From Planctomycetota bacterium (GTDB lineage: Bacteria > Planctomycetota > UBA8108 > SXIK01): a stretch of 64,000 bases of DNA. Position 1 is the first letter of the stretch, and each line of letters begins with the position of its first letter. A program made the translations under genes and the position numbers. Shown piece after piece: positions 12,512-30,600 of this stretch. A model generated the notes under the pieces. It saw nothing but the letters and a program-made list of their open reading frames with translations, searched no databases and was not told the DNA's origin. The stretch is taken from contig OZ244999.1 in NCBI GenBank assembly GCA_965223265.1, positions 5,664,001 to 5,728,000 of the forward strand, in the 5' to 3' direction.

Positions 12512-13486
12512 TCAGCTTTCCCCTGTCTGCGGACAGCTCTCCGGCGGGGTCCAGCAGCCCCATCCCAGCGGTGCGTCGACTGCGAAGTTGCCGGGGCCGC
12601 ACTCGGGGTAGGGAGCAATCGGCGCCAGGCCGGTGGCAAAAAGGAAGTTGAGAACCGAGATGGGATCGGCGATGTCGATCGCGGCATCGCCGTTGACGTT
12701 GAGCGCGACCACACAGCCCGGCGTCTCGCCGTCGGCAAAGAGCCAGTTGAGCGTGCACACAGCGTCTGAGAGGTCGACCTGGCCATCATCGTTACAGTCG
12801 CCGCGCAGGAAGGACGGGTTTTCGACCTCGATCATTGAGACAATATCGAGGCTGATGATCGGATCCTCAGGCGGACCGGCCATGGCCATTTGACGCAGCG
12901 TATGAAAACCGGGACTGAGGGGCCGTAGAAGCACGGAATATCCCCCGAGGGCCCACCAGGCTGGACCTCCGTTTCCGACATCGGAATAGTCCCCAAAGAA
13001 GCAGCCGTTGCCACGGTGCTCCGGCGCAAAAAAGTCACGGTTCGGGCCCTCGTCGACAGACACGGAAAAGGCTGAAACAGAGTCCACAAGTGCCGTCACC
13101 CGGTTCAGGCACGCGGTGTCGCTACAGCTCACACACTGCTGGTGAGCCCGGAACTGCATGACGATGGGAGCGCCGTATGGCACCTTGCATGTGTACTCGA
13201 TCACCACCGCTCCGCCACCTCGTATGGTACCAGGTAAGAAAAAGACGGGTCCCATCTGCTCGACTTTGCATTCGACGTCTTGATTGATGTCCGGGTTGCC
13301 CTCGTCCGGAAGCGCCCTAAACCACTGGAAGTGCTCAAGCGTCCACTCAAACGCGGTCTTGCCGTCGATCACCGTCCCCGACGGATAGATCTCGCTCGCG
13401 GACCCCGTTTCGTCGCCGCGCGCAGACTCCGCGACGCCCACCCCCATAGCAAGGGCCGCCGAGAGAAGAATGTCTCGTGCCTTCAT
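12512..13486 (-). CDS. Nested in-frame secreted protein (324 aa) with signal peptide and dockerin
   Basis: GAAAGGA-ACGTC-ATG at 13486, in frame with the kinase; signal MKARDILLSAALAMGVGVAESARG; then EW..HFQW...NPD...C...GPVFFLPGT...CKVP domain and a dockerin. Confidence 0.65.
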   Translation of the reverse strand: MKARDILLSAALAMGVGVAESARGDETGSASEIYPSGTVIDGKTAFEWTLEHFQWFRALPDEGNPDINQDVECKVEQMGPVFFLPGTIRGGGAVVIEYTCKVPYGAPIVMQFRAHQQCVSCSDTACLNRVTALVDSVSAFSVSVDEGPNRDFFAPEHRGNGCFFGDYSDVGNGGPAWWALGGYSVLLRPLSPGFHTLRQMAMAGPPEDPIISLDIVSMIEVENPSFLRGDCNDDGQVDLSDAVCTLNWLFADGETPGCVVALNVNGDAAIDIADPISVLNFLFATGLAPIAPYPECGPGNFAVDAPLGWGCWTPPESCPQTGES

Positions 13487-15460
13487 GACGTTCCTTTCTG
13501 GGTTCTTTGCCAATTGAAGTTGCACCACCCCCCAAGCTGCTCTCGCGAGCAGTCGGCTGCGCGGGTGGTCGGGGTCGAGCTTGAGTGCGGACTCACAAGC
13601 CTCCGCGAGCTCGACCACTGGAGGTGCGCTCGTCCGGTCACGTGAGAGCAAAATCTGCCGCAACAGCGTGACCACAAGCAGGTGATGCGCGTCGAGACTG
13701 TCCGGATCAGCTCGTCGCGCTTGACGCGCAGCGTCCGCTGCGCCTCGCCAATCTTTCGAGTTCAGAAGCAACATCGCTACCCGACGTTCGTGGACGGCTG
13801 GCGCGACGACTTTCTTCGCCCATCGCACCGCGCCGTCGTGCTCCATCAAGGATTCATAGACGGCGGAGATCCACAGCGCGGTCTCGTCGGGAGTCCGCAC
13901 CGAAACGCTCTCGTGCAGCCTCTCGAAGAGCTTCTCGGCGACGCCGTGCTGGTCGGCGGCGAGATAGGTCTTTCCCAGGAGGAGCTCAGGCTCGAGAGCG
14001 CCCGGGGATCGATGACGCGCTACAGCAAAGTGCTCCGTCGCCTTTGCGAAACTCAACTTAGCGCGCTCGGGCTTCCCGGTTTTCTGCGACAGACCGCGCT
14101 CGAGGTACGCGGCGCCGAGCGCGAGGTGCGCTTCGATGCGAAAACCGACGTAGGGCTCGGCGCGCTCGCCGGCAAAGAGTGTTTCGTAAGCACGGATCGC
14201 TTTGTTCCAGTTGCCGTTGTGGAGAGCAGTGTGCGCGTCGAGCCAAGTATTGAGTTCGTCAACGGCTGCTCCCTTGAGCGCCTCGAGACGCTCGTCCTCA
14301 TCGTCAACATCATCGCCACCTTCGATCTCCATCTGGAGCACGGCGGCGGGAAGGAACGTCGGGTTGATCCCGAGCGCCCGCTCCGCGGCATTCGCCGCGA
14401 GCTCTCGTTCGCCGAGCAGCTGATACGCACGCGCCAGGTGATAGTGCGCATCGATCTCTTCCGGCAGCAACTCGGTGAGAGCTTGCAGGTCCTCGGCAAC
14501 CTCGCGGAGTGGACTCTTCTTACCCTCCGGCGTCGCGAGCTCGAGATCCTTCAGCTGGCGCTTCTGAATTCCCTGCGACCAGACGCGAAACGCCGGACCC
14601 GCCTGCAGGCTGAACTCTCCCACCAACAGCCTCACAACCGCCTCGCGCACCGCGGCGGGGTACTCGGCTAGCTTCTTCTGCGTCTCCGCCAGTTCTTTCT
14701 CAGTCTCGAACCGCGCGCTCCGGTAGGCGAACCAACCGGTCAGTCCACCGAGGAGCGCCAGCAGGAGGATGACGCCCACGGCCAATCGGTGACGACGGAA
14801 AAAGCGCGCGAGCCGCTGGCGCGGTCGCTCCGGCCGCGCTTCGATCGCGTCGCCGCGCACGAACCGCCTGAGATCTTGCCCTAGCGCCTCGGCTGTTCCA
14901 TAGCGATCGCCGGCGTCTTTCCTAAGACACTTGAGCACGACCGTTTCGAGATCCTGAGGGACTCGCGGATTTTCCTTCCGCAGCTCCACGGGATCACGCT
15001 CGATGATCTGTGAGAGCGTGTCGGCGTGGTCCTTGCCGCGAAACGGCGGCCGTCCACAAAGCGCCTCGTACATCGTCGCACCGAGCGAATAGATGTCCGT
15101 TCGGTGATCGACGGGAATCTTTTTCCGCCGCGCCTGCTCCGGACTCATGTAGAGCAGCGTACCGACCACGTCGCCGGAAAGCGTCAGCGACTCTTCACCT
15201 TCGAGGTGAGCGAGACCAAAGTCGAGGATGCGGAGGCGACCGGGGTCGCTCCTCCCGCTCGTCACCTCTCCGCCCGCTCGCGGCCACGTCTCGAGGTCGA
15301 GGATCAGGTTCGACGGCTTGATGTCGCGATGGATGACGCCCTTTGAGTGCGCGTGCTGGAGACCATCCGCGACCTCGGCGAAGGCTTCAGCAATCTTCTC
15401 GAAGTAACCCGGGCGATCCTTCTTTCCAAAGACCGTCGGCGTCTCCGGCTCCGCGTCCCT

Positions 15461-15505
15461 GATCTTCGCGAGGATCTTCGCGAGGATCTTCGCGAGGATC
15501 TTCGC
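15461..15505. repeat. 12-bp tandem repeat GATCTTCGCGAG x3.75 encoding (LAKI)4 in the kinase
   Basis: Directly visible, in frame, and ends about 20 bp from the att core. Confidence 0.95.
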
Positions 15506-15527
15506 CAGCGTCTCGCCGTCGACGTAC

Positions 15528-15536
15528 TCCATGGCG
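15528..15536. repeat. att core (left copy) TCCATGGCG
   Basis: Identical to 29482-29490; joining the outer flanks restores the kinase frame PFYAMEYVDG. Confidence 0.92.
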
Positions 15537-15676
15537 GACGATGGGAGTGACGGACGGGTGAATCACGCCGGATCAAAACCGATTCGTAAACCGTCAACCG
15601 CAGGCACTTAGGACGTTCAGAGCCCCATAACTCGCCCGTCTGCCGTCCCTGTTTACCGGCATTCTGGGGTTTCTGG

Positions 15677-15695
15677 TTGTGCCTTCATTGTGCCT
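15677..15695 (+). promoter_or_regulatory. Putative integrase arm-type sites (left): TTGTGCCT x2, 11-bp period
   Basis: TTGTGCCT at 15677 and 15688; matching tandem pair at the right end. Confidence 0.6.
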
Positions 15696-15718
15696 CGATT
15701 GACCGCCGAAGTAGGAAC

Positions 15719-17158
15719 ATGGACGAACGCTATCGCTACGAAGATGTCATTGGAACGAACTACCGCCTGGGTGCCCTGTTCAAGCCGAACCAGGGGAAGA
15801 AGCCCAAAAGCAAGGTTCACTGGCACAGTCGAATCACACGGAAGAATCCCGCCACGGGCAAGTGGGAGAAGGCAACGCCGTACAAGCAGAGCGGCGGTAG
15901 CACGGATAAGAACGAAGCCAAGAGGAAACTCTGGAAGTGGTGCGTTGAGCAACACCAGCGAGACGAGAATCTCGTCGTTGCCAGAACCTTCGAGGATGCC
16001 GCCGAGGAATGGATTGAGGATTTCAAGAAGCAGGTCGAGCTTGAAAAGACGAGGAAGTCCACCACGCTGACGAACTACCGCTCAACGATCAAGTTGCTGA
16101 ACTCGGCGAAACTCGAAAGGCGGCGGACGACGCTCGGTCAACTCAATCTCTGCGACCTGCGGATGTCGGACATCACCGACTTGCAACGGTCAGATGCTTA
16201 TCTCAAGAGCAGTCGAGGCGAACGGACGCTCTCGTCCAAGCAGCAAATCCTCAAGTGCCTGAAGTCCTTTCTGACTTGGTGTGCAGCAAGGGACGACGGA
16301 CGCTACATCGCCAAGGTTCCCTCGTTCAATGTGCTGCCGGGCGGCAAACCGAGAAAGCGAAAGGCGGTTCGGCTCGAACTCACCGACCTAATGAACTTGT
16401 TCCACCGCATTCAGATGAAGGTGGATTTCGAAGGACTCCCGGTCGAGAACCTCTGGATACTGTGCTTGCTCTTGATTCGTACGCCACTGCGTAAAAACTG
16501 TTGTCTGCGGCTTCGATGGAACCAGCACTCGACCGAAGGTTGGGTGGATTTGCAAAACGGGTGGATAGTCGTTCCCGAGGGTTTCACCAAGAGAGGCGTT
16601 CCCTTCTCTTTCCCCCTTTGCGACGAGCTGTGGAAGATACTCACCCTCGCTTACGAAGACCGTCCGAAGGACGAGTACGTCCTGGCGAATATGCGGACAC
16701 GAAACGATATCCCAAGATCCTGGTACGGGATCTTTCGTGAATGCTTGACCTCCGAGTCCTTGGATACGGCGGACGTGGAGAACTTCCGGTTGCATGATCT
16801 TCGCTCCGTGCTAATCACGCAACTCGACGAAGCCGTAATCGAGGAAGAAGAAGGCGGACGCATCATCCACAAGAGTATCCCCGAGAGCTACAAGCGACTT
16901 CTGGCAGATCACACACCTGGAAGCGATGAGCACGTGGGATACCGCACGCTTGATCACGAGCACAAACTTCGACGCTATATCAATGCGTTGCCCGCTCTCT
17001 TTGACCGAGAAGTCTTACCCGAGTGGTTGGGTGCCGAGATACTGAGAGATGTAAAGGTTGGAGTCGGCTCGACGGAAGAAACGACTGCCTACGACACCTC
17101 GGAGCTGGAGAGCATGAACACTTTTGATGCTCATTTCCCTGTAGAGACGGACACCTAA
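15719..17158 (+). CDS. Tyrosine integrase
   Basis: Catalytic residues R (TPLRKN), K (FTKRG), HxxR (LHDLRS), H (ADH) and Y (VGYR); core-binding TFEDAAEEW...TLTNYR region; AGGA RBS before ATG 15719; adjacent to att. Confidence 0.9.
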   Translation: MDERYRYEDVIGTNYRLGALFKPNQGKKPKSKVHWHSRITRKNPATGKWEKATPYKQSGGSTDKNEAKRKLWKWCVEQHQRDENLVVARTFEDAAEEWIEDFKKQVELEKTRKSTTLTNYRSTIKLLNSAKLERRRTTLGQLNLCDLRMSDITDLQRSDAYLKSSRGERTLSSKQQILKCLKSFLTWCAARDDGRYIAKVPSFNVLPGGKPRKRKAVRLELTDLMNLFHRIQMKVDFEGLPVENLWILCLLLIRTPLRKNCCLRLRWNQHSTEGWVDLQNGWIVVPEGFTKRGVPFSFPLCDELWKILTLAYEDRPKDEYVLANMRTRNDIPRSWYGIFRECLTSESLDTADVENFRLHDLRSVLITQLDEAVIEEEEGGRIIHKSIPESYKRLLADHTPGSDEHVGYRTLDHEHKLRRYINALPALFDREVLPEWLGAEILRDVKVGVGSTEETTAYDTSELESMNTFDAHFPVETDT

Positions 17159-17525
17159 AGCAACTTCCACACCGACACAAAAGTTGCCCGAGCAGACTTG
17201 GTGCCGTTGAAAATCGGTTTCCTCTCCGAAGAAATCTCGAAAAAAGTCAGGTCCGCCTGACGGCCCTCCAACCCGCCTTCACGCTCACCGAGCCCATCTG
17301 CGTGTCGGGGATCGGGCCTGACAGTCTCCTCTCGATCCAGCATCTCGAATCCGTTGGCTACAAGAGGGAATGCGGGCAAGAGATTCGTCCGACTTGTGAC
17401 GTTCTCCCATTTCGGGAACCTTGTCATCAACGTACCCCGATTTGACGGTCTACGTGGGACATCCGAGACTTTAGCGGAACGAGGCTGGCTGCCTCATGTC
17501 AACTTTTGAAACGATGGAGATGCCA

Positions 17526-18089
17526 ATGACTTATCAAGATTTCTACGAAGCTGTTACTAATTCCAAAGAAGGTTGCCGCAACGGATTCAACGTCGTGGAG
17601 CAGATTTGCAAAGTCCACGGACTTCCGAAAGATCAGGTGATCGACTTTCTTCGTGACCGCTATGTGTCGTGCGACTGCGGTGTTCACATGAAACTGAAAC
17701 CCGGCGTCGTGTCTGAGGAGTGGAAGGAGATGCTGTGTCAGGAGGAGTCTGTCCGCAAAGCTTTCCGCCTCGACATGTGGGTTGGCTCCACCAAGTTGGC
17801 AGATATTGCAACTGAGGCAATCAAGGATCTGCTGCCTCGAAACCATCCTGAATGCAGGATCGTTGACGCTACAGCCTCAAACAAGAAACTGAACGTAATC
17901 CTTGAAATACCGGAGACGCTGAGCCCGGAACGAGTTCGTGACCTTCTCGAATCTCACTTTGACCTCTACCGCCAGTGCCCCGAGCATCCTCTATTCAATC
18001 ACTCAGCAATCAGGGTTGACGAGCCGGTGCCATTGCGGTCCACGGCGACCACAGGCCTAATGCGAGCTTGGGTGGAAGAGTCCTACTGA
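17526..18089 (+). CDS. Hypothetical protein with a DUF2695-like CDC motif
   Basis: GGAG RBS; C...VIDFLRDRYVSCDCGV resembles the DUF2695 CDCE motif. Confidence 0.6.
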   Translation: MTYQDFYEAVTNSKEGCRNGFNVVEQICKVHGLPKDQVIDFLRDRYVSCDCGVHMKLKPGVVSEEWKEMLCQEESVRKAFRLDMWVGSTKLADIATEAIKDLLPRNHPECRIVDATASNKKLNVILEIPETLSPERVRDLLESHFDLYRQCPEHPLFNHSAIRVDEPVPLRSTATTGLMRAWVEESY

Positions 18090-19214
18090 GAAAATGAAAA
18101 ACTTTCTCGTTCGACCGTATGCGGCAACAACTCCAGCACGGAGCAACGGCGTCCGGGCGAATCACGTTGCGGGGAGCGGACGAGGAGAGCCAGAACGGCT
18201 CTGGTCGGAGAGTCATTCTTGGCCTGTGCGGTGATCTTCACTGCCTTTGGTAGTTTGGGTCGGGTTGAGCGGTGCGGCGATTCCAGACAAAGGAAACGGC
18301 AAGTTTAGGAAGCTGATCGATAAGTTAGAGAAAGTTGAGATTTCACATTTGATCTCGGGTATTATTACTAAAAAGACTTGCCTGTAAGGTGTCTTTGTCA
18401 AAGAGATGTAGTAGGTGAGACAGACACCGACATTCGGTGAGTAGTCCGGACCAGTGTTTCGACACGGTGAACACCGGACGTGTTCGATGATGATGGAAGG
18501 GAGAAGATGAAGGTTGAGATTCTCCCCCCAGATGTTCATTCAAATAGCATAAATCCCGCCTGACCCCACAGAGCCGTTCTTCGGCGTGCTGCGAGTTCGA
18601 AGATTGCTGGCCGAGGTGCCACAGAATCGACCGAAATCGACCGATTTCGAAAAAGTTGGGCGGAAATCGAAACGAAAGTCGTATTTCAGATGAAGGGCCT
18701 TAGCTCTTCCAGGGTTCCCGTGGAACCCTTTCCCACGGCGGGCGGTTTGCTGCAGGCGTGCATCGGAAAGCACGTGCTCCCAAGAGAAGCCACTGCAAGC
18801 CATACTCTGGGCTCTGTCAGTCCGTATAGCGGACATCGAGCTGTGGGGAGCCAAAGCCGAAAACCTGGAACGGAATCTGACACAGATTCCTACGCTGCCG
18901 AGGCTGCGAAAGTCTCGGGGGGCTTGCTGGGCTGGCAACCAGACTGCCGGACGTAAGCTGCAAGGGGTCGCTTACCGACTGAACCTTGCGTGAGTCTTCG
19001 TCGTGGGCAGAGGACACCAGGGAATTCGGTCTGAACGCAAGTCACTTCGACTTGCCATGGCTCGGGCGATAACCTGTGGAAAGCACGGTAAGGGCTTCCA
19101 CGGGGAAGAGCGGCACGGGGAGGTTGGTAATCGACAGGACAAGCAAAGAGTCCTGCCCCTGATGCCCCCGGTATGCCCTGACTTTGACAAAGGAAACAAT
19201 CAAGGAGAAGTGTT

Positions 19215-19385
19215 ATGCCTAAGAAAGCCAAGTTGATAAAGGTCGTATCGTTCGGATGTGATCCGAAGCTACATTACAAAATCGAAGAGGCGGCCGAGCG
19301 AGAATCTCAGACAATCGCAGCGTTTGCCAGGCGGATCGTCCGGGAATACTTGAACGGCCAGGAAGAGAAGCTGAAAACCGACTGA
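19215..19385 (+). CDS. Ribbon-helix-helix (CopG/Arc-like) protein, 56 aa, not in the ORF track
   Basis: AAGGAG RBS; MPKKAKLIKVVSFGCDPKLHYKIEEAAERESQTIAAFARRIVREYLNGQEEKLKTD fits the strand-helix-helix pattern. Confidence 0.75.
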   Translation: MPKKAKLIKVVSFGCDPKLHYKIEEAAERESQTIAAFARRIVREYLNGQEEKLKTD

Positions 19386-19620
19386 GGATCGATCTTGTTC
19401 CCGAGGGGTGCTGGGCGTCAACGGTCTCCTCGGGACGATTAGAGACCAAGAATAGGCGATCTTCCAGACGGTAAACGTGTTCCACGGCATCGCCGACAAC
19501 ACGGCGTCTCTGTCAGGAGACAAGGGGCCGCCTCATTCTTCAAAGATGGCGATTTGAAAGAATGAAGATTCAGGGTGAGGGGTTCCGTTGGCTCTTCTAT
19601 GCCTGTCGTTGTCCGCTTGA

Positions 19621-20292
19621 ATGGAGAAGAAGATGAAAGGCAGATTTGACGCCGCAGAGGATGCGTACCTGCGTAATAACCATCGCACAATGACCGATGC
19701 CGAGATTGCGTCGGCATTGAGCAGGACTAAGCCGAGCATCGCCGGGAGAAGGCGTGTTCTGGGCCTCAAGGGGAATCGACGAAAACCACGAAAAGCAACC
19801 TACCCCGGAAAAACGGAGGATGAGGCGGGCCGTCGGTTGTGGGAGGAGGCGTGCCGCCGGTCCCGGAACTTTCGTGGAATCGTTTCGACGCTCAGTAAGG
19901 ACGAGGAACTTGCCTACGTGGAAAACTGGATCGACTGGCATTCCGAGGAAATCCAGTTTACGGCGATGGAAGAGGATCTCGTCCATTACTCCATCTTGGC
20001 TCAGCTCCGAATCATTCGGTTGCTGAAGGAAGAACGGGAATCAATCGACTGGGCAACGGCGGAGAGAAAAAAGGGCAACCTCTCGGCGATGCCAGTATCC
20101 CGAATGAGAGAGATCAAAGAACAGTTCGCCATCGTCGCCAAGAATCACGAATCGCTCAATGTCGAAAGACGGCAACGGTTGAAGAATCGGCAAGAGGCTG
20201 GCAGCCGCTTTATCGATATTGTGAAGGCGAGCAAGGAAGCAGGAGCGGAGCCAGCTATGCTCAAATGCTTGAAGTGGAAGCGAATGAAGTAA
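19621..20292 (+). CDS. HTH-containing phage-type protein, possibly terminase small subunit-like
   Basis: N-terminal FDAAEDAYLRNNHRTMTDAEIASALSRT..SI..RRRVLGL HTH; helical C-terminus ending ESLNVERRQRLK. Confidence 0.6.
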   Translation: MEKKMKGRFDAAEDAYLRNNHRTMTDAEIASALSRTKPSIAGRRRVLGLKGNRRKPRKATYPGKTEDEAGRRLWEEACRRSRNFRGIVSTLSKDEELAYVENWIDWHSEEIQFTAMEEDLVHYSILAQLRIIRLLKEERESIDWATAERKKGNLSAMPVSRMREIKEQFAIVAKNHESLNVERRQRLKNRQEAGSRFIDIVKASKEAGAEPAMLKCLKWKRMK

Positions 20293-20427
20293 AAGGGGCG
20301 GTGTGTATTCCGGTGTCTTTTCTCGGGCATGTGCCCGGCCGCCTCAAAAAACTCGTCAGAAAGATGCCGAGGTAACTACTTCTGAGGTCGTACAAGATAT
20401 AGGGGACGATGGCAGTTGGAGGGAAAC

Positions 20428-20667
20428 ATGATAAGTGGGAAAAAGACAGGTGGGCGTTGTGGCACTTGGCTGCCTTACGCCAGAATCGCCGAACTGGAGG
20501 TCGTCGAGGAACGCACCGGCAAGAGCCGGAGTCGCTTGATTGCTCTCTGTGTGGAAAAAGCGATTCGGGAGATTGCCAAGGAAGAGCGTGTCCAGCTCCC
20601 GAGCCAAAAGGGGCTACCGTCTGACAGGCATTCGTATCTGGTTTCTAAGGGATTGGGGTTGGAATGA
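20428..20667 (+). CDS. Second small RHH-like regulator
   Basis: GGAGGG RBS; TWLP..RIAELEVVEERTGKSRSRLIALCVEKAI; ATGA overlap with the next gene. Confidence 0.6.
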   Translation: MISGKKTGGRCGTWLPYARIAELEVVEERTGKSRSRLIALCVEKAIREIAKEERVQLPSQKGLPSDRHSYLVSKGLGLE

Positions 20668-21873: not shown

Positions 21874-21874
21874 A

Positions 21875-22144: not shown

Positions 22145-22710
22145 ACGAGAAGGGGTCGCCAGGTTCTGCAAAATCCGTCTTCCGTGTCCGGCGGCCCTAC
22201 AGGGATAGGGCGGGGTCCATGTGTCGATCTCTACACGCCATGATCCCGCTCCACGAGATGAAGGCGAGGAACGATTCAGCAACCGGCTCTCGCCCAGGGA
22301 AAGACTCTGTTCTTTCCCTCAAAATACAGATGCCCGTGTCAGGCGGGCTTCACCTCCATGAAGAGACCTCCGAGGTTTCTGCATCAGGAACGCTGTGACT
22401 ACAAATCATGGCGTTCCTTTTTTTGTTCCCCTGTTGGTAGATACCTTGTAGACGTTTGGTAATCATTTGACTTGCAATAGTGGTATATACCTTGCCCTTG
22501 GCAAGCCTACGTAATCCCACCATGCCGGTGGGTCTGCCTGGCACACGAGACGCACGGAATCCGTTAAAGCCTGGCGGGGTCGTTTTCGCCTTCGATCCTT
22601 ATGCCTCCGGGTATGCAATTGTGGCAGTGTCTTTGTCAAAAGAGATTGGTGGCAACCATCTCTTCTTCTTGATAGAGCCTGTTCAGAATAGAAACGCTCA
22701 ATACCAAAAT

Positions 22711-22743
22711 TTGATAACAATGGTCGAGTAGTCAGGTTATCAA
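22711..22743. promoter_or_regulatory. Inverted repeat TTGATAAC-N17-GTTATCAA upstream of the second recombinase
   Basis: Perfect 8-bp IR in an AT-rich stretch about 60 bp before the gene; function is inferred. Confidence 0.45.
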
Positions 22744-22804
22744 CTATGCGTTATTATTTATGTGAATGATGATTCAAACGTAGTAAGACGTTTACCAAGA
22801 GGAG

Positions 22805-23731
22805 ATGTTGATGCTGCCCGCCTTGACTCACAACGATGCCCTCTCCACCGAAACCGACCCCGCTCGTGCTGTGTTTGCCTACTTGTCTTCGTTGAGTCCA
22901 AAGGGTCGCCGCTCGATGTCGTCCCGTCTCAACAAGATTGCGGGGCTCCTGGGCTACTCTGTGGAGTCTTGCCCCTGGCACCGGCTCTCATACGAAACAC
23001 TCTCGATGCTGAGGACTCGACTGACCGAGGACGGCCTGAGTCCGGCTTCCGTGAACACCTGCCTGGCGGCCGCCAAGGGAATCCTGCGGGAGTGTTTCCG
23101 GCTCGGAATGCTTACCGCCGAGGAGTGGCAGCGTGTCCAAATGGTCAAAGGGATCAAGGGGAGTCGGCTTCCTGCCGGTAGAGAGCTTGGTCAAGAGGAA
23201 GTGCGGGCATTACTCAACACCTGCCACCCAAGTCCTCTTGGGATTCGAGACCGAGCCATCATTCAGACGCTTTACAGCACCGGGCTCCGTCGCCAGGAAC
23301 TCGTGAGCGTTCGCCTGGAGAACTTCGGCGGCGACTCCGTCACAGTCGTAGCCAAGGGCAACAAGGAACACCGGGCTTTCCTGTCTGAGTCGGCACGTCA
23401 AGCGGTGCAAGAATGGCTTCAGGTTCGGGGCGAGGAACCTGGCTTCTTGTTCGTGCGAGTCCGCAAGGGCGGCAAGATTGGGGACGTGGACAAAGCCCTC
23501 TCTGACCAAGCCGTTTACGCAATGCTGAAGAAGAGAGGAGAGGCCGCAGGGCTGGAGTCCTTCACCGTTCACGACTTTCGCCGAACGGCGGCCTCCACCT
23601 TGCTCGACAGGGGCGTTGATATCGCCACCGTGTCCAAAGTTCTCAACCACTCATCCGTAACGACTACTGCCCGCTATGACCGGAGAGGCGACCGCAAGAA
23701 AGCCGATGCTGCTCGTCTGTTGAGCCTCTGA
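22805..23731 (+). CDS. XerC/D-like tyrosine recombinase
   Basis: RDRAIIQTLYSTGLRRQE, KGNK and HDFRRT...LNHSSVTTTARYDRR motifs; GAGGAG RBS. Confidence 0.95.
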   Translation: MLMLPALTHNDALSTETDPARAVFAYLSSLSPKGRRSMSSRLNKIAGLLGYSVESCPWHRLSYETLSMLRTRLTEDGLSPASVNTCLAAAKGILRECFRLGMLTAEEWQRVQMVKGIKGSRLPAGRELGQEEVRALLNTCHPSPLGIRDRAIIQTLYSTGLRRQELVSVRLENFGGDSVTVVAKGNKEHRAFLSESARQAVQEWLQVRGEEPGFLFVRVRKGGKIGDVDKALSDQAVYAMLKKRGEAAGLESFTVHDFRRTAASTLLDRGVDIATVSKVLNHSSVTTTARYDRRGDRKKADAARLLSL

Positions 23732-23753
23732 GTCGGGACTGGAAGGAGAACAC

Positions 23754-23975
23754 GTGGAAATCGTGATCGCCATCATCCTGATCGTATTGTTCGCCGCTCG
23801 TGTCTACTCGGAGTTCCGGGTGTCCTGTCGAAAGCAAGATGCCAGACAAGAGTGGATGGAAGCACGACAACGGGTCAGGGAGTCGGCCGAGGACGGCGAA
23901 GCACTCGGATTCTTTCTCGGCTACCACTTGTTCTACACCGCTCCGCAAGAGGACGACGAATGCTCTACCAAGTAG
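23754..23975 (+). CDS. Small single-TM protein
   Basis: AAGGAG RBS with GTG start; MEIVIAIILIVLFAA hydrophobic helix. Confidence 0.7.
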   Translation: MEIVIAIILIVLFAARVYSEFRVSCRKQDARQEWMEARQRVRESAEDGEALGFFLGYHLFYTAPQEDDECSTK

Positions 23976-24190
23976 TTTTTGGTGCCGAGACAATCTACCA
24001 GGGGTTCGGCAAGTACGAGGCGGCCGAAATCTACAACGCAGCCGTAGAGAACGGAGCGTTTCCCGTAACCGCATACTTTGACGGCTGTCCGATTGAGCAC
24101 TTCGACCCGTTCGACGCTTTCCAATACCAAGACCCTTGGGATTTCGGGGACTGGAACCTGGACGACTTCGAAGGATTCGAGTTTTTGTGA
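23960..24190 (+). CDS. Small, very acidic, aromatic-rich protein (76 aa)
   Basis: GAGGA RBS and ATG 23960; 15 D/E versus 1 K and 0 R. Confidence 0.65.
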   Translation: MLYQVVFGAETIYQGFGKYEAAEIYNAAVENGAFPVTAYFDGCPIEHFDPFDAFQYQDPWDFGDWNLDDFEGFEFL

Positions 24191-24375
24191 GCGACTTGGC
24201 GGGCTCCCATCCCTCGTGCTGGGTGGTCAAAGAGAGAGGGGCGGGCATCCTTTTGACCGAGACCACGCCGGAGCGTACCGAGGGGAATTCAGGGGAAGTT
24301 GGCTCGGCATAGAAGAGTTTGTGCTGGCCGAGTAAACTGGCGGTTTGACGATCGCAGAGAAGTGGAGGAGACGCC

Positions 24376-26148
24376 GTGGCCTCGCAGCCTTACGACCTGT
24401 TTATCAGCCACGCCACCGAAGACAAGGCGGGCTTTGTTGAGCCGTTGGTTGCTGCCTTGGACGAGAAGGGGCTCTCGGTCTGGTACGACCGGAAGATCTT
24501 CAAACTCGGCGACAGCATCCGGGGCAAGATTGATGAAGGGCTCGCTGGTACCCGTTTCGGTGTCGTCGTGTTGAGCCAGACGTACGCAGCGAAACAATGG
24601 ACAAAAAACGAGCTGGGTGCGTTGATGGCGAAGGAGACCGATGGCGAGAAGGTCATCCTCCCCATCTGGCACGGCGTCGGAACCGAAGACGTGAAGCGGC
24701 TCTTTCCGACGTTGGCGGACCGCATCGCCGTATCGTCAGGAGAAGGGATTGACGCTTGCGTGGAGGCGATTGTAGACGCTCTCTCTGACGAAGGAACGCC
24801 CGTGAGTCCGACTCAGATCCGCCCCCCCGGAGGCGTCGGGCTTGGTCAGGAGGAAAAGGAAATTCTACTTGCTGCAGTTAGTGGTGAACCCGAAGACGTT
24901 GTGATGGAGTGGAACACAGGCGGGCACAGACTTGAGGCCGGTGGGCGTGACCTCACGCAGAATGCAGACAGGCGAGCCATCGCAAGGTACAGAGCTGCGG
25001 TCCAGCGTCTCGTTTCCCGTGGGCACCTTGACCAGTCAACGGCAAGCGATTGCCTGTACGACATTACGCACCAGGGGTACGAGGCTGCCGACAGGCTTAA
25101 GGCGGAATCCACTGCTTCTGTTGAGCCAACCCAAGTGCAAGAACGCAGAGAAGAGTTAGGTCAAGGGGAGCAAGAGCTTCTTGTCGCCGCTGCAGGCGAT
25201 GACGGCTACGTGCTTTCCGCCGGACACAAGCAAGGACACGACGTGCAGGCGGGCGGGCGAAACTTCACACAGAACGCTAACCCGAGAACCATCGAGAAGT
25301 ACAAGGCGGCGGTTCGGAAGCTTGTCGAGCGTCGGTACCTCGAAGCTCAAGGGCACAAGAACGAGGTGTTTAAGGTATCGCATGAGGGATACGAAGCGGC
25401 GGACAAGATCCGGGGCAATGTTCTTGTTGAACCTGTCGAGCCGCCGGACTGGGCCGAGTCACTGGCAAGGTATCGCCAGGACTTTCCGGATGTGGCGGCA
25501 TTCCTATCCATCTCGAATGCGTTTGGCCGGAACGCCTCTGTCAGCTACGACGAGTTCCGGGAGACGGTCATCAAGAAGAGGTTGAATCTCGGAGACATGT
25601 ACGGATGGCCGTGGTTCGGTCCGCCGCCGGAGGGGATGAATCCCGAATGGCAGCGAAGACGAGGTGTCCGCCTACCGTATTTTGAGAAATACTACTGGGA
25701 TATTCTGGAGTCGGGGCACTTCCTTTTCTGCACCAACACGTTCACGTGGAACGACGACGACACAAGCTCGGTCGGTGTGCGGACAATGCTCTACCATCTT
25801 CTCGTAGACTTGACGTTCGCTGGAAGGGTTGCAGCAGCGTTTGGCGTCTCAGGTTCGGGTGGCGGAGTTGAACTCTCGCTGCACGGTGTCAAAGGGCGGA
25901 GGCTGCATTGTCAGGCAGATCTGCAGACCGTGTTCCCCGAGTGCACGGTTGACAGGTTCACGGCCCCGCTTGACTACGCCTTTTCGTCGAACCCGGATGC
26001 CATTCGAGAAGCAGCTATCGATGTCGTGTACGAACTGCTGACCTACTTCCCTCAGCCTCACGATGGCAGCCGCCTTATCCATCGAAACCAACTGGAGCAG
26101 CCCGCCAGGGACATTCAACAGAAGAATGGTCTCTTGGGAGACACTTGA
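24376..26148 (+). CDS. TIR-domain protein with two ~85-aa winged-helix-like repeats and a C-terminal alpha/beta domain
   Basis: YDLFISHATEDK, VWYD, GDSI..KIDEGL, VVVLS and WTKNEL (catalytic Glu) motifs; repeats at 24841-25098 and 25156-25410; GGAGGAG RBS. Confidence 0.92.
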   Translation: MASQPYDLFISHATEDKAGFVEPLVAALDEKGLSVWYDRKIFKLGDSIRGKIDEGLAGTRFGVVVLSQTYAAKQWTKNELGALMAKETDGEKVILPIWHGVGTEDVKRLFPTLADRIAVSSGEGIDACVEAIVDALSDEGTPVSPTQIRPPGGVGLGQEEKEILLAAVSGEPEDVVMEWNTGGHRLEAGGRDLTQNADRRAIARYRAAVQRLVSRGHLDQSTASDCLYDITHQGYEAADRLKAESTASVEPTQVQERREELGQGEQELLVAAAGDDGYVLSAGHKQGHDVQAGGRNFTQNANPRTIEKYKAAVRKLVERRYLEAQGHKNEVFKVSHEGYEAADKIRGNVLVEPVEPPDWAESLARYRQDFPDVAAFLSISNAFGRNASVSYDEFRETVIKKRLNLGDMYGWPWFGPPPEGMNPEWQRRRGVRLPYFEKYYWDILESGHFLFCTNTFTWNDDDTSSVGVRTMLYHLLVDLTFAGRVAAAFGVSGSGGGVELSLHGVKGRRLHCQADLQTVFPECTVDRFTAPLDYAFSSNPDAIREAAIDVVYELLTYFPQPHDGSRLIHRNQLEQPARDIQQKNGLLGDT

Positions 26149-26351
26149 TTCTGTCTTCCAAATGTCAAGCGTTTGCTGAGTTTCCGTATTGCGTCAGACG
26201 TTTGCCATTCCCGTTACTCGACACTTTCCTTTTTCTTGATAATGCGTTTATGTGTGTACGTTTACGTAGTTTTGCCCTGTTGGTTCGACGGTTTCCATCT
26301 ACATCTCTATTCTGATGAAAAGATGTAGTTTCTAAGTTTCGGAGCGATCTG

Positions 26352-26380
26352 TTGACAGTCGGCTTGTGCCGGTGCATCCT
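26352..26380 (+). promoter_or_regulatory. sigma70-type promoter TTGACA-N17-CATCCT
   Basis: Perfect -35 box and 17-nt spacer, upstream of the AAAGGAG RBS of the 26407 gene. Confidence 0.6.
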
Positions 26381-26406
26381 CCGGAAACTCAGTAAAGGAG
26401 AGCCCG

Positions 26407-26760
26407 ATGCCGAAGTCCTTGGAAGCCAAGATTTCCGACGTGATAGAGGCGAGAGATGCCGTAATCGCCGAAATCGATGCCCAGATAGCGGAACTCCAAG
26501 CCAAGAAGGCCGAGCTTCTGGCCGGCCGGAATGACACTAAGCCTCCGTCAAAGTCAAAAGGGGGCCGTGGACGCCGAGCGAGCGTTAATGATCGGGAGCT
26601 TACCAAACTGGTGAAACAAGGCTGGACAGCCAAGAGGCTGGCGGCACACTTCGGAGTCTCAACGCAGACCATCCAGAACCGAAAGGCGAAGCTGGGACTA
26701 ACGAAGCCGAGGAAACGCAAGAAGAAAGCGAAGAAGAACACGGGGAGAACGAAGAGATGA
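26407..26760 (+). CDS. Small basic coiled-coil + HTH DNA-binding protein
   Basis: N-terminal heptads (IAEIDAQIAELQAKKAELL); HTH WTAKRLAAHFGVSTQTIQNR; Lys-rich tail. Confidence 0.8.
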   Translation: MPKSLEAKISDVIEARDAVIAEIDAQIAELQAKKAELLAGRNDTKPPSKSKGGRGRRASVNDRELTKLVKQGWTAKRLAAHFGVSTQTIQNRKAKLGLTKPRKRKKKAKKNTGRTKR

Positions 26761-26815
26761 CGCACCGTTCTCATTGGATAGGAAGGCTGCCGCAAAGATT
26801 CGCTATGTGAACACT

Positions 26816-28036
26816 ATGGCAAAGAAGAGAACTCGAAAACCTCCGAGGCGAATCCAAAAGCCGAAGCTTGACCCATTCGTGGTGATCGTCGATACGAATA
26901 TGCTTTGGTTCAAGGACAAAGAGCCGCCGGTCAACCCGGAGTTCGACGAGCTGTGGAGCGAGCTCGAGTCGATGGTAAGCCTGGAACTGGTCATTCCAGA
27001 GGTGGTAAGGGGCGAGATTCTCTTTCAGCATACGACCTCTGCCCAGAAAGCCATTGACAAGGCGTTTGGGGAGATCGAGTTGGTATCGAAGATTACTGCG
27101 AAGAAGCAGCATTTTCGTTACCCGAAAGACAGGATTCGAAAACAAATAGAGAAGAAAATCGACGAGTGGATCAAGGGGAAAAAAGCAGCCGTCGCTGCGA
27201 CACCTTATGACGAGATCGATTGGAGTGATTTGTGTCAGCGATCCATATGGAGGCAGCCGCCGTTCACTTTTGACCCGAAGGATTCCAAAACTGAGAAAGG
27301 CTTTCGGGATGCATTGATACTTGAGACGGTGGTAAGTGTTGCACGTGCAGAGAAGAGGAAAGTCAATCTTTCGTTCTTGTGCGGGGATTTCTTGCTCCGT
27401 ACTACCTCCGACAAGCGACTCAAGGACGATGAGCGGTTTTCAAGTTACGAAACAGCCGCCGATTTTGCTTCATTCATCAAGCTTGCCAAAGATGAAACTA
27501 ACCAGAAGTTTGTTCGTGCAATTCTCAATCGAGCTCGAAGGAAGTTCTATGCCGACGGCGAGCCGGACTGCCTTTGGAGAAGAGAGAAACTCGTTGATCG
27601 AATCCGAGATGAGTTTGATTCGTACTTCGAGAAGCCGGAACTCTCGCAGGACTCTTCCTTACCCTTGCTTCGACTGATCCACGGAGACTTGCGAGCGGTT
27701 GGGTCCGGGAGATGGAAACTCGGAAAGCCAGAGTTCATTAGCATCGAAGGAGAGCGAACATATCATTGGAGGTCAGTATTGACGTTCGCTCAGTTGTACG
27801 TGTCAGAGGGAGAGCGAGGAGGCTCGGAATCGTTCTTTCAGGTGCATGAGGCAGAGAAAATTCTTGTCCTTCCGTTTTCCGTATTTTGGAAGGCGGATAT
27901 CAAGGCCGACGGCAGATTCTACAAGATCGATCTTGAGACGATCGAATTGACAGGTAACGAGTACCGCAATCCACTCAAAGAGGACCGGGAAAAGTTCCGT
28001 TCGCTTTGGGATGAGGAGGTGGAGGAGACAGGGTAA
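26816..28036 (+). CDS. PIN-domain protein (DUF4935/PIN_12-like)
   Basis: VIVDTN, VIPEVVRGE, PPF...KGFRDALILE and FLCGD give a full acidic tetrad. Confidence 0.88.
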   Translation: MAKKRTRKPPRRIQKPKLDPFVVIVDTNMLWFKDKEPPVNPEFDELWSELESMVSLELVIPEVVRGEILFQHTTSAQKAIDKAFGEIELVSKITAKKQHFRYPKDRIRKQIEKKIDEWIKGKKAAVAATPYDEIDWSDLCQRSIWRQPPFTFDPKDSKTEKGFRDALILETVVSVARAEKRKVNLSFLCGDFLLRTTSDKRLKDDERFSSYETAADFASFIKLAKDETNQKFVRAILNRARRKFYADGEPDCLWRREKLVDRIRDEFDSYFEKPELSQDSSLPLLRLIHGDLRAVGSGRWKLGKPEFISIEGERTYHWRSVLTFAQLYVSEGERGGSESFFQVHEAEKILVLPFSVFWKADIKADGRFYKIDLETIELTGNEYRNPLKEDREKFRSLWDEEVEETG

Positions 28037-28038
28037 GC

Positions 28039-29370
28039 ATGGCGAGTCGTAGAGCGATAACTGCGTTTCTGGACACGAACGTTCTCCTCCACTATCCGCC
28101 TATCTCGGACGTGAGTTGGACGGACTGGCTCGAATGCGACGAAGTGAAACTTGTTCTCTGCGGCCAGGTTATCGACGAGGTGGATGAAAAGAAAAACCAC
28201 CCGACTCTCTCAAGGCGAGCCAACAGGGTGATTCGGGAGACTCGGCGGCTCCGTCAAGCTGGTGGCACTGTTCGAGACAACGTGACGCTTCACATCCTCG
28301 TGAAACAAGTGTCCAGCGACGATTTGAAAGCTGCGGGGATATCCGATAGCCCGGACGCTCGCATTCGTTATCAGGCGAGGCAGTACATCGATTCAAACCC
28401 TTCAGCGGAAGTGGTCATTGTCAGTGAAGACGGCGGTATGGACGTGCGATGTGACGCCGAAGGGCTCACGTGTGTTCCGCCGGACCTGGAGGCACGTCTT
28501 GAGACTCCCGAATCAGAGCAAGGAAAGAAGATTCGGGCACTTCAGCAAGAAGTTTCCGGACTCAAGCACCGGAGCCCGAAACTCAAGATAGTGTGCGTGT
28601 CAGCAGAAAAGGGGGCTGGAAGGGAGTATCCGGTTCGGTTTCAACTTTCACGCTCGGTGGAGCAGCTCGACCCAGAGTCCGTCGAGAAAGAAAGGCGGTC
28701 CAAGTACAAGCCTATTGCGATTCCAGAGGGTAACGCAGAATCAGCGTTGTCGAGTCTGCAATCAGCCGTTGCCGGTAGGTCTCGGGAACGGGCTGAGGAG
28801 TACAACGAAGAGCTGGAGGAGTACTTTGAGAAAGTAAAGAAGTGGGCAGAACAGACGAACGACGCTCGGGAGTTTTGGGGGCGGTCCTTCTCCTTCGTCA
28901 TGGAAGTCCATAATGAAGGGACGGAGCCAGCCAAGGGCGTTGACATTGACCTGCGACTTCCTCCGCTGGTTTCCTTTGTTCTACACGACGATGAGCATAA
29001 GGGCGTGTTCCCGAGCCTCAGCGAAGAACCGAAGCCACCGAAACCTCCAAAAGCAGATGTCTTCGGCCTGACCGGTTTCCAGCACTCATTGTTGGGAGAA
29101 CCCTTCATGCCGACACTTCCCGATAACCTAATCAAGCCGATTGGATCACCTCAGTCTTGGCTGACAGGTGACAAGGGTAGCGGCTTCGTGGTTCGATTTG
29201 ACATTCCGATGCTGAACCACCATCGGTACGTTACGTTTCCTGAAGTGACCGCCGTCTTCGAGTCTTGGGATGCGGTCGAGTCCTTCGAAGCAAACGTCCT
29301 CATCACGGCCGAGAATATCCCCGAGCGGATCGAGGAGACCATTTCGTTCGTTTTCGACGTGAGCGACTGA
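28039..29370 (+). CDS. PIN-domain protein with coiled coils and a C-terminal beta-rich domain
   Basis: FLDTNVLLH, QVIDEVD, SPDARI and IVSEDGGM motifs; VHNEGTEPAKGVDIDL; GGAGGAG RBS, starting 2 nt after the upstream stop. Confidence 0.88.
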   Translation: MASRRAITAFLDTNVLLHYPPISDVSWTDWLECDEVKLVLCGQVIDEVDEKKNHPTLSRRANRVIRETRRLRQAGGTVRDNVTLHILVKQVSSDDLKAAGISDSPDARIRYQARQYIDSNPSAEVVIVSEDGGMDVRCDAEGLTCVPPDLEARLETPESEQGKKIRALQQEVSGLKHRSPKLKIVCVSAEKGAGREYPVRFQLSRSVEQLDPESVEKERRSKYKPIAIPEGNAESALSSLQSAVAGRSRERAEEYNEELEEYFEKVKKWAEQTNDAREFWGRSFSFVMEVHNEGTEPAKGVDIDLRLPPLVSFVLHDDEHKGVFPSLSEEPKPPKPPKADVFGLTGFQHSLLGEPFMPTLPDNLIKPIGSPQSWLTGDKGSGFVVRFDIPMLNHHRYVTFPEVTAVFESWDAVESFEANVLITAENIPERIEETISFVFDVSD

Positions 29371-29411
29371 TTCGGTTGGCCGGTCCGTAGGAGTGCAGTA
29401 TCCCCAGACGC

Positions 29412-29430
29412 TTGTGCTTCCCTTGTGCTG
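29412..29430 (+). promoter_or_regulatory. Putative integrase arm-type sites (right): TTGTGCT x2, 11-bp period
   Basis: TTGTGC at 29412 and 29423, with the same spacing and orientation as the left pair. Confidence 0.6.
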
Positions 29431-29462
29431 CAGTCCCGGGAAACCCCTTACGCCACAACGGT

Positions 29463-29945
29463 TTAGGGTTGATTTTCCGAGTCCATGGCGTAGAACGGCG
29501 TCTGCTGCGTCACGCCCGTGAAGTAGACCGGAACGACGTTGGGATGGCTCAGCTTGCCGGCGGTCTGCGCTTCGCGCAAAAACCGCGCGCTCGCTCGGGT
29601 GTCCGCCGCGATTCCCGCCGGGAGCACCTTGAGCGCGACGCGCCGGTCCAGCGAGTTCTCCCATGCCTCGTAGACCACCCCCATGCCACCGCGCCCGATC
29701 TGGCGGCGGAGGGTGTAGTCGCCAAGGGTGCCGAGCGGCTCAGGTGAGGCGGCGGCGGCGAAGCAGTCGACGAACCGCTCGAGGCGCTCGAGGATGCTCT
29801 CGCCGTCGATCGGATTCTCGGCCAGCACTTCGACCGGATCGAGGCTCTCCCCCGAGTTGATGCGATCGATGTACTCACCGACCTTTCGGTCGATCTCGGC
29901 GGCAGGGTCGCGCTGAGCATCGCCCGCAGGCTCTCTACCCTTCAT
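29463..29945 (-). pseudogene. N-terminal part (N-lobe) of the interrupted Ser/Thr kinase
   Basis: LGDYTLRRQIGRGGMGVVY, VALKVL, RFLREAQ, HPNVV and PFYAM, then six element-derived codons (DSENQP*). The start overlaps the end of the ECF gene. Confidence 0.92.
29482..29490. repeat. att core (right copy) TCCATGGCG
   Basis: Identical to 15528-15536. Confidence 0.92.
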
Positions 29946-30600
29946 CGTCACCCCCCTCGGTGCTCTCCTCGGTGCTTTCCTCGGTGCCCTCCTGGATGCC
30001 GAAGAGTCGATCCGGAAGGTGGAGGCTCTCGGTCTCACCGAACGTCGCACGCAGTCGGTCGAGTGCGCGAGAGAGGAGTGCGTAGACCGCGCTCTCAGAG
30101 CGCTCCATCTTGGCGGCGATCTCGCGCACCGGCAGGCCGTCGAGGCGGGCGAGTTTCAAGGCCGTCCGCTGGTCATCACTCAGGTTGTTGATGGCCCCCT
30201 CCAGTCGGTCGAAGCGCTCACTGCGGCGCGCGGTCTTGCTGGGGGTCACATCGCTCGCGGCGACCTCACGCGTCAGCCGGATGTCGTCGAGGGACTTTCT
30301 TTGCGACGCACTGCGGATGAGGTGCTCCGCGATGCCGGCAAGCCAGCGGTAGAACGACTCTTCGCCTTGCCAGCGGAACTTTGCGATGGCGACGAAGGCA
30401 CGCGAGACGGATTCCTGGTAGACGTCTTCGGCGTCGAGCGCGGATCGCACACGCTTTCCTAATCTGGACCGAATCTGCCTTAGGAGGCGGTCCTGGTTGC
30501 TCCAGACGAGTTCGTCGAAGGCGGCCCGGTCGCCGTCTCGAGCTCGCGAGGCGAGCTGAGCGGAAGTCTCTTCTTCGTCGTGAGTCATCGTCGTCTTCAT
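29935..30600 (-). CDS. ECF RNA polymerase sigma factor
   Basis: GDRAAFDEL, DAEDVYQE, FYRWLAGIA, TPS linker, and sigma4 LPVREIAAKMERSESAVYALLSRA. Confidence 0.95.
   Translation of the reverse strand: MKTTMTHDEEETSAQLASRARDGDRAAFDELVWSNQDRLLRQIRSRLGKRVRSALDAEDVYQESVSRAFVAIAKFRWQGEESFYRWLAGIAEHLIRSASQRKSLDDIRLTREVAASDVTPSKTARRSERFDRLEGAINNLSDDQRTALKLARLDGLPVREIAAKMERSESAVYALLSRALDRLRATFGETESLHLPDRLFGIQEGTEESTEESTEGGDDEG

Follow-up and report, generated by a model that had tools for sequence, protein, structure and literature searches.

The window analyzed here is a 64,000-nt stretch of contig OZ244999.1 (GCA_965223265.1), a planctomycete genome assembled as one 9.18-Mb contig, and positions below are window positions. 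On the minus strand of this window, a gene for an extracytoplasmic function (ECF) sigma factor lies directly upstream of a gene for a transmembrane Hanks-type Ser/Thr kinase. The kinase gene is split at its hinge by an integrase-bearing element with a 9-bp core repeat. The features that define the split are listed below, with open reading frames given as ORFs and G+C content as GC.

29935..30600, minus strand: ECF sigma factor gene, first of the operon (Pfam Sigma70_r2, Sigma70_r4_2, Sigma70_ECF)
29491..29945, minus strand: kinase N-half of host origin, comprising a conserved N-terminal extension of about 75 aa and the N-lobe to hinge residues PFY, with AM falling within the core repeat
29945->29463, minus strand: N-lobe ORF with a foreign end, carrying GRGGMG, VALK, RFLRE, HPNVV and PFYAM, then DSENQP and a stop
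29482..29490: copy of the core repeat (TCCATGGCG) at the junction far from the integrase gene
29463..29481, minus strand: element-encoded tail of the N-half ORF, which completes the D codon and continues with SENQP and a stop
15537..29481: island body, 13,945 bp, GC 0.547, single copy in the genome
15677..17158, plus strand: tyrosine integrase, reading inward, with a probable start at ATG 15719 (as in its relative P0123), 183 nt from the core
15528..15536: copy of the core repeat (TCCATGGCG) at the junction near the integrase gene, containing the ATG that opens the C-half ORF
15461..15508: 12-bp tandem repeat of about four units coding AKILAKILAKILAKI (the AKIL repeat), in the helix after the hinge, in frame and adding 8 aa (24 bp)
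12512..15532 (15532->12512), minus strand: kinase C-part ORF, 1006 aa, which starts MEYVDG and carries HRDIKPSN, DFG and SPE

An earlier note on this DNA, made from its letters, had claimed that the two lobe ORFs 14 kb apart belong to one interrupted gene, and the protein matches bear this out. The N piece covers positions 1-66 of the Pfam Pkinase profile and the C piece covers positions 99-259, with the latter also matching the Pfam profile PK_Tyr_Ser-Thr from position 81. In P0003, the best intact homologue, the match to the N piece runs as far as residue 156 (YYAME) and that to the C piece starts from residue 155 (ME), such that the two pieces abut on residues 155-156. Identity between the N-half and P0003 is 62% over residues 20-156 of the latter. 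Virtual excision of 15537-29490, the deletion that the note had said would restore a PFYAMEY kinase, indeed produces a 3480-nt ORF that encodes 1159 aa uninterrupted by stops and reads PFYAMEY at residue 150. The note was likewise correct that the halves are open, as there is no stop or frameshift across the 1006 codons of the C-part or the 154 codons of the N-half. Its statement that the element does not replace the lost gene end also holds, since the N-half ORF stops six codons into the element and no N-lobe is encoded upstream of the C-half. The truncated N-half ORF, a 160-aa fragment, is still encoded behind the sigma gene, whose stop overlaps the kinase start (29945) by 11 nt. The C-part proceeds from the C-lobe through a transmembrane stretch and TPR repeats to a dockerin-like C-terminus, and among 8000 scored candidates no homologue that covers it almost completely is more than 55% identical. 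On the opposite strand within the C-part coding sequence, ARAGORN calls an 85-nt tRNA-Arg(tcg) at 14809-14893 (plus strand), which is probably a false positive, given that no Rfam tRNA reaches the gathering score there.

The repeat reported at both junctions is present at each of them. Its two copies form a 9-bp direct repeat, lie 13,954 bp apart, and lose identity exactly at their edges. The chance of a 9-nt match at two boundaries that were set independently by protein homology is about 4e-6. Counting both strands, the genome contains 192 copies of the 9-mer, and a third copy within the window (35848-35856), located outside any kinase hinge from a tblastn scan, is probably one of these chance occurrences. 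In the orientation of the gene, the core reads CGCCATGGA and falls where the gene encodes the hinge motif YAMEY. The predicted empty site (attB), TACgCCATGGaGTA, is a near-palindrome, which fits the look of a tyrosine-recombinase core site. When the 22 nt of this predicted attB were searched in genome contigs, the one match (L025:5773-5794; JAFGFN010000204.1, a Sumerlaeota metagenome-assembled genome) was found in an unrelated 692-aa kinase (GMPFYAMEYVEGKSL) from another phylum. That match says no more than that the site is a motif commonly encoded in kinases; attB-like sequence is thus available well outside planctomycetes. Neither an empty attB nor a free attP was found in the assembly. Four sequencing runs from one study, kept as contigs, contain 0.97-1.00 of the sampled words of 11000-20000, although these runs may be the source of the assembly; none of the runs listed is of RNA.

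The C-half carries one peculiarity close to the junction. Because of the AKIL repeat, the hinge-to-HRD distance is 67 residues in the split kinase vs 59 in 87 of 118 homologues, and a repeat of this kind was seen in none of 120 homologues, including the closest intact relative P0142. A 16-aa insertion before DFG was also considered as a sign of decay but was set aside, since the spacing at that point is longer in 17 of 118 homologues.

The integrase matches Pfam PF00589 (Phage_integrase) at 30.8 bits (gathering cutoff 27.1; E 2.9e-7) and the PHROG_1 integrase family at E 1.7e-27. The Pfam match spans profile positions 27-145 only, leaving the Tyr region outside. The atlas neighbours of the protein are tyrosine recombinases, and its gene begins 141-183 nt from the core. 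The earlier note had credited this protein with all catalytic residues. This stands for R272, K305, H373 and R376, which are invariant in an alignment of three sequences, and is less firm for the second His and the Tyr, which are assigned by motif. No solved relative in the PDB was found by sequence, and an hhalign comparison with the XerC/D-like protein encoded elsewhere in the island aligned the HxxR box alone.

The integrase belongs to a very small family. Just two relatives are found at E<1e-10 among 1.84 billion representatives, namely P0123 (82% identity across 479 residues) and P0124 (38%). The gene was found only in this genome (G000) and not in 58 other genomes of the class (E<=1e-6) or 400 other genomes of the phylum (E<=1e-10). 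There were also no relatives in genome contigs, IMG/VR or plasmids, and a phage search returned a single match at 24.6%.

The gene for the 82% relative appears to accompany a second kinase that is split at the same position. P0123, P0245 and P0024 each map to one ENA contig, in every case 376,241 bp long. P0245 is a 153-aa N-half that ends YYAMEWVCQP-stop, and P0024 is a 977-aa protein that starts MEYVDGQTLAQIL, with the same MEYVDG start as the C-part described above. Six-codon tails that end Q[PR]-stop are shared by P0245 (QP-stop), P0161 (ECGNQR-stop) and the split kinase (DSENQP-stop). On the same 376,241-bp contig, P0014 is an intact kinase with 84% N-lobe identity to the split kinase and a common FGKKD..GYFE signature. 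On these protein comparisons, the P0123 element appears to sit in another paralogue, with P0014 as the likely intact orthologue.

The 38% relative, P0124, is encoded on a 4096-bp metagenome contig (L026). About 230 nt upstream of this integrase gene, and in the same orientation as in the split-kinase island, lies TACGCCATGGAGTACG. This sequence equals 16 nt of the predicted attB. It matches the N-side junction at 11 of 16 positions and the C-side junction at 14 of 16, and jointly the two account for the predicted empty site. The expectation for a pre-specified 16-mer in 420 nt is about 1e-7. Read in the kinase frame, the flank past the core encodes EYGLHSKESVNPLDTRTA-stop, which is not kinase sequence, and a near-identical tail ends the kinase N-halves P0174 (EYGLHSKDSVNLRNARTA) and P0171 (EFGLHSEESVNPWNTRTA). 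Because the flanking peptide of L026 is the tail found on these proteins, L026 holds an attP-type junction, and P0174 and P0171 represent integrated junctions of related elements. An 85% orthologue of the P0174 kinase, in genome G003, is intact through the hinge. No terminal overlap was seen in L026. Within L026:1-170 (minus strand as read), a 16-nt motif (GGAATACGNCNTCCAC-like) recurs twice past the attB-like 16-mer, at spacings of 79 and 67 nt. The first GGAATACGNCNTCCAC-like copy overlaps the core, and these copies might be integrase-binding repeats in an arm; no equivalent is present at the ends of the island studied here.

Splits at the hinge also recur more broadly among kinase proteins in databases. 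We compiled a short set, made up of the 119 best N-half matches of 88-280 aa, and a long set made up of the 120 best homologues of the C-part. The hinge is recognizable in 103 of the 119 short homologues, and a non-kinase tail follows immediately after the hinge Met in 48 of these 103. The other 55 either continue as kinase or are too short to tell. The 48 tails comprise 35 of the LTGQS type (LTGQSPR...), 5 of the form EYG[VL] and 8 others. On the opposite side of the split, 4 of the 120 long homologues begin exactly at the hinge Met. P0015, P0051 and P0083 consist of the C-half only, and P0015 was not found in the class genomes. Likewise, no other hinge-split kinase was evident by open-frame lengths in 22 relatives, where matches were not inspected singly. 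The N-half alignment also retrieved two kinases from IMG/VR, both intact.

A FastTree phylogeny of 216 N-parts, built with tails excluded, was used to view the distribution of the split state. Before its construction, 24 of 240 candidates were dropped for lack of a recognizable hinge or P-loop or because the N-part fell outside 110-260 aa, and three rows of the tree carry no state. The tree requires 46 changes of state for its 48 split rows, no fewer than with shuffled labels (mean 43.5, range 37-48). Because the tips are mutually distant, this result speaks to many separate gene lineages and not to a rate. The earlier note had proposed a comparison of intact with interrupted alleles in relatives, and both are indeed found. 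Among the N-lobes closest to the split kinase, P0142 (96% identity) is intact, and P0137 (93%) and P0139 (92%) are split with other tail types. The intact G003 orthologue of P0174 is a further example. Another pair of interest is P0204 and P0211, which have near-identical N-halves (tree distance 0.10) and unlike tails (LTGQSLRTFPRS vs ELESRPSYSPLDNGLHPP). Perhaps the same kinase was hit by two different elements in close relatives, as these tails may suggest.

The most abundant tail, LTGQSPR followed by 4-7 variable residues and a stop after the hinge Met, terminates 35 different N-halves on unrelated metagenome contigs. The proteins concerned are P0139, P0151, P0154, P0155, P0159, P0160, P0162, P0164, P0168-P0170, P0172, P0180, P0184, P0188, P0191-P0193, P0197, P0201, P0202, P0204, P0207, P0217, P0218, P0222, P0225, P0230, P0233, P0236, P0238, P0242, P0246, P0248 and P0249. 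These contigs are mostly short, as expected for a repeat that breaks assemblies. To judge from the peptides, the tail looks like the conserved end of a prolific, unnamed element that hits the same codon. One might instead propose that LTGQSP is the alphaF motif of the kinase itself, brought next to the hinge by a deletion. This is unlikely, as the tails are 11-14 aa long, end in a stop and vary like non-coding DNA. A degenerate DNA pattern for the LTGQSPR tail was absent from 59 class genomes and from IMG/VR. Its single match in 401 phylum genomes is due to chance, since it falls inside a normal kinase alphaF helix (LYHMLTGQSPS).

The remainder of the island carries genes exclusively on the plus strand, and its features following the integrase are listed below.

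17496..18089, plus strand: 197-aa ORF without a family match
19621..20292, plus strand: 223-aa ORF with a weak match to PHROG_323 (phage D5-like transcriptional regulator; E 1.5e-6) and no Pfam match
20664..21320, plus strand: 218-aa ORF without a family match
22386..22418, plus strand: strong terminator-like hairpin (13 pairs and a T run) that divides the integrase module from the recombinase/defence module, from a consensus scan only
22729-22757: promoter-like site after the hairpin, from a consensus scan only
22805..23731, plus strand: second tyrosine recombinase, XerC/D-like, mid-island (Pfam Phage_integrase, E 5.9e-35)
24376..26148, plus strand: TIR protein of 590 aa, with an N-terminal TIR domain and an uncharacterised C-terminal part (Pfam TIR_2, E 4.5e-19)
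26407..26760, plus strand: small helix-turn-helix (HTH) protein of 117 aa (Pfam HTH_23 and HTH_11 below cutoff; PHROG HTH families)
26774..28036, plus strand: PIN_12-domain protein of 420 aa (Pfam PIN_12, E 2.6e-15)
28039..29370, plus strand: PIN_4-domain protein of 443 aa, with a PhoH2-N-like PIN (Pfam PIN_4, E 5.3e-13; PHROG_2765; NCBIfam weak)

The composition of this DNA is distinct from that of the gene it interrupts. Its GC of 0.547 compares with 0.636 for the kinase halves, with a step at both junctions, and GC at third codon positions is 0.59-0.69 vs 0.73-0.83. In a PADLOC search, the TIR protein matches PDC-S66, a candidate system (E 1.3e-52), with a ThsB-like match at E 1.3e-29. The PIN proteins have no PADLOC match, and no complete named defence system was recognized. 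The XerC/D-like recombinase falls below the cutoffs of NCBIfam XerC, XerD and XerA and has weak paralogues in the genome (<=32% identity). Searches of the element ORFs with Pfam, NCBIfam and PHROG found no phage structural or lysis, conjugation or transposase families and recognized no recombination directionality factor (Xis/RDF family). No terminal inverted repeats or arm-type repeats were found at the element ends, and there is no tRNA or Rfam match inside the island. A recombinase at one end, a core repeat with a restorable target, and foreign composition with cargo are all present, as in islands mobilized by tyrosine recombinases. By its predicted gene content, the insert is an integrative island of the defence type.

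The host side of the locus also bears on how the interruption should be viewed. This genome has eight sigma+kinase loci of the split-kinase family, three of which are disrupted, and we take this as reason to regard members of the kinase family as individually dispensable. The locus at G000:C1:1213375-1215314 is a pseudogene, in which a tandem duplication of about 320 bp in the N-lobe shifts the frame and a second frameshift follows HADTLSQ. The locus at G000:C1:5642849-5644648, some 20 kb before the window, has a frameshift right after DFGLAR (P0214 and P0085-like) and is either a pseudogene or the product of a single-base assembly or sequencing error. Across the genome, the exact 9-bp core is present at 5 of 45 hinge sites examined.

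The sigma factor encoded ahead of the split kinase scores 81 bits with the NCBIfam model sigma70-ECF (cutoff 42.9), and its best model is the planctomycete-specific Sig-70_plancto1, for which it falls below the cutoff. Its region 2.2 reads DAEDVYQE and thus keeps the acidic DxxDxxQE motif. In ECF43 sigmas, as passages of PMC13147305 describe them, the acidic DxxD of region 2.2 is replaced by an uncharged, QTTA-type sequence with a conserved Thr, and phosphorylation supplies the charge. Of the ECF43 hallmarks, the partner of the split kinase shows adjacency to a kinase gene and lacks the replacement of the acidic DxxD. Because it retains acidic residues that ECF43 sigmas lack, the premise that a kinase in the off state means a regulon in the off state is weakened. 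From this motif, dependence of the sigma factor on the kinase is not implied, and that premise is perhaps less secure than had been assumed.

We consider it likely that the insert is a mobile defence island that integrates site-specifically and uses the kinase hinge motif for attachment. By this scheme, a low-GC, single-copy island of 13.95 kb would have entered the ECF-sigma-coupled Hanks-type Ser/Thr kinase gene by tyrosine-integrase site-specific recombination between its attP and the 9-bp core CGCCATGGA in the YAMEY codons. Integration would have cut the gene between N-lobe and C-lobe, leaving the 160-aa N-fragment and the 1006-aa C-part, and catalytic activity would be lost as a result of a cut at this position. 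The hinge motif would serve as the attachment site of a small integrase family and apparently of several other element lineages, as a target that is conserved and present in multiple copies, any one of which is dispensable. If excised precisely, the island would leave the 1159-aa gene rebuilt, such that the event would be reversible in principle. This proposal draws on the anatomy of the locus, the target motif, the recurrence of splits among proteins and the attP-like form of one relative. We further infer an active integrase, a recent insertion, and an integration that reflects selfish "safe-harbour" use rather than regulation. The earlier note had left a choice between a regulated switch and "simply a recent insertion". 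The insertion of a mobile element is supported and a regulated excision switch is not, yet the second phrase seems too weak, since the hinge motif looks like a dedicated and recurrent target. An extension of this idea is that the YAMEY hinge is a dedicated site for several planctomycetal element lineages, one of them the prolific lineage whose end translates to LTGQSPR. This would give scarless, DNA-level on/off control of whole families of sigma/kinase modules in a manner resembling phase variation, to the benefit of the host, the element or both. We view this extension as unlikely.

Several points weigh against the proposal of a hinge-targeting defence island. The second His (H412) and the Tyr (Y422) of the integrase are assigned by motif and spacing only, and the third aligned sequence has Tyr at the His position. 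The XerC/D-like recombinase inside the island could be the active one. DNA of an attachment region comes from a single relative (L026), and the placement of the 82% integrase between P0245 and P0024 is deduced from the equal contig size of 376,241 bp. Truncated genes are overrepresented among the short proteins sampled. The LTGQS type, with its 35 cases, is known from protein only, and these cases may derive from an unrelated kind of element or may not be insertions at all. Indeed, the abundance of LTGQS tails and the rarity of the integrase family suggest that a different kind of element may be involved. Finally, the exact core is also found, unoccupied, at the hinge of four further kinases encoded in this genome.

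One alternative is an excision switch, regulated by the host or timed by the element, in which the island keeps the ECF/kinase module off and excises on a stress or developmental cue, restoring the kinase in the way that skin restores sigK, a prophage comK and the nifD element nifD. In its favour, both halves are open, excision would be scarless, the integrase looks intact, and the target is a signaling gene in an operon with its own sigma factor. The recurrence of hinge splits and the lack of phylogenetic persistence of the split state would fit frequent reversal, and a relative in attP form exists (L026). However, no recombination directionality factor was recognized among the element ORFs, and the element and its integrase were not found in the 58 class or 400 phylum genomes, so conservation at the locus, a feature of known developmental elements, is not seen. 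The 82% integrase relative appears to occupy a different paralogue, with the likely orthologue left intact on that contig. The element is single-copy, and its low GC and defence cargo are typical of recent mobile DNA. Furthermore, two additional paralogous loci are broken by ordinary mutations, the sigma factor keeps its acidic region 2.2, and the AKIL repeat expansion is unique to the split allele (none of 120 homologues). We consequently judge a regulated switch to be improbable.

About equally doubtful is a dead insertion, in which the element integrated once and cannot excise, for example because of an inactive integrase or inactive att arms, and the kinase is a young pseudogene that precedes the arrival of stops. 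In its favour are the in-frame 24-bp expansion that is unique among 120 homologues, the pseudogene state of two other paralogues, the weak Pfam match of the integrase that does not cover the Tyr region, and the lack of free attP or empty attB in the assembly. Yet 1006 + 154 codons are free of stops and frameshifts, the element GC is not ameliorated, and the integrase is full-length, 82% identical to its relative over 479 residues, and invariant at R, K and HxxR. Far less credible is an assembly artefact or a transposition event that duplicated 9 bp of target. A short flanking repeat (9 bp) whose identity ends at its edges would be compatible with either, but no element ORF matches a transposase family, there are no terminal inverted repeats, and the same core plus seven more attB nucleotides adjoin the gene for the 38% integrase relative. 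The two halves fit to the residue, and the interval 11000-20000, within which the left junction lies, has its sampled 31-mers fully represented (1.00) in runs X1 and X2, though these runs may be the assembly source.

The main interest of these findings resides in recurrent, motif-directed targeting, for which confirmation at the DNA level is still needed. Site-specific islands normally insert in tRNA genes or at the ends of genes and do not abolish the function of the target, whereas here the middle of a catalytic domain is used. The gene family hit is greatly expanded in planctomycetes, with eight sigma-coupled copies in this genome, and metagenome protein fragments suggest that several kinds of element hit the same codon. 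If confirmed with DNA, this would define a new class of attachment site, namely a near-palindromic coding sequence for a conserved protein motif, and would explain a share of the "partial" kinase calls in planctomycete assemblies. A compact tyrosine integrase with a short, defined target would also become available, and switching of signaling modules by DNA rearrangement would become testable outside spore formers and cyanobacteria.

Full-text searches, which covered only a library of open-access papers, found no description of elements that target kinase hinges. The island can be compared with better-known systems. Regarding the interrupted operon itself, passages of PMC13147305 and PMC7826278 present direct phosphorylation of a sigma factor by a Hanks kinase as established logic for the ECF43 pairs EcfP/PknT and EcfK/PknS. 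Like these pairs, the locus studied here has an ECF sigma gene directly upstream of a transmembrane Hanks kinase gene. Unlike them, its sigma region 2.2 reads DAEDVYQE rather than a QTTA-type sequence, and its kinase begins with a conserved extension of about 75 aa.

Gene-intervening elements are known from spore formers and include skin in sigK, SPbeta in spsM, gin in gerE and yin in yabG (PMC5025042, PMC4191935, PMC5595907 and PMC10747680). The kinase island resembles such elements in bearing an integrase, lying inside a coding gene, supplying no replacement end and rebuilding an ORF on precise excision. The elements of spore formers excise under sporulation control in a mother cell that is terminally differentiating, have known directionality factors, employ serine recombinases in many cases, and occupy one conserved locus. 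For the kinase island, in contrast, a directionality factor, regulation and conservation of the locus were not found, and its target motif extends across a multigene family in which different paralogues are hit.

Reversible interruption of a host gene, with function restored on excision, is a property of the comK prophage of Listeria. The hlb-converting Phi13 of Staphylococcus aureus behaves in a similar manner (PMC12519783). Both the comK prophage and Phi13 are complete prophages whose excision is tied to stages of infection, whereas the kinase island is without phage structural or lysis genes.

The nifD, fdxN and hupL elements of heterocyst-forming cyanobacteria interrupt functional genes, are flanked by direct repeats of 5-11 bp, and rely on tyrosine or serine recombinases (XisA, XisF and XisC). 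Those elements are developmentally programmed, ancient and vertically inherited, whereas the kinase island is compositionally foreign and absent from relatives. Other islands target conserved genes, such as tRNA and tmRNA genes, rlmH (SCCmec) and prfC (SXT). The kinase island is like these in that a recombinase uses a highly conserved host attB present in many hosts, and in that it carries accessory or defence cargo. However, islands in tRNA genes, rlmH and prfC usually sit at the end of the gene and preserve its function, whereas the kinase island cuts through the middle of a catalytic domain, inactivates the gene, and uses a site that is repeated in many paralogues.

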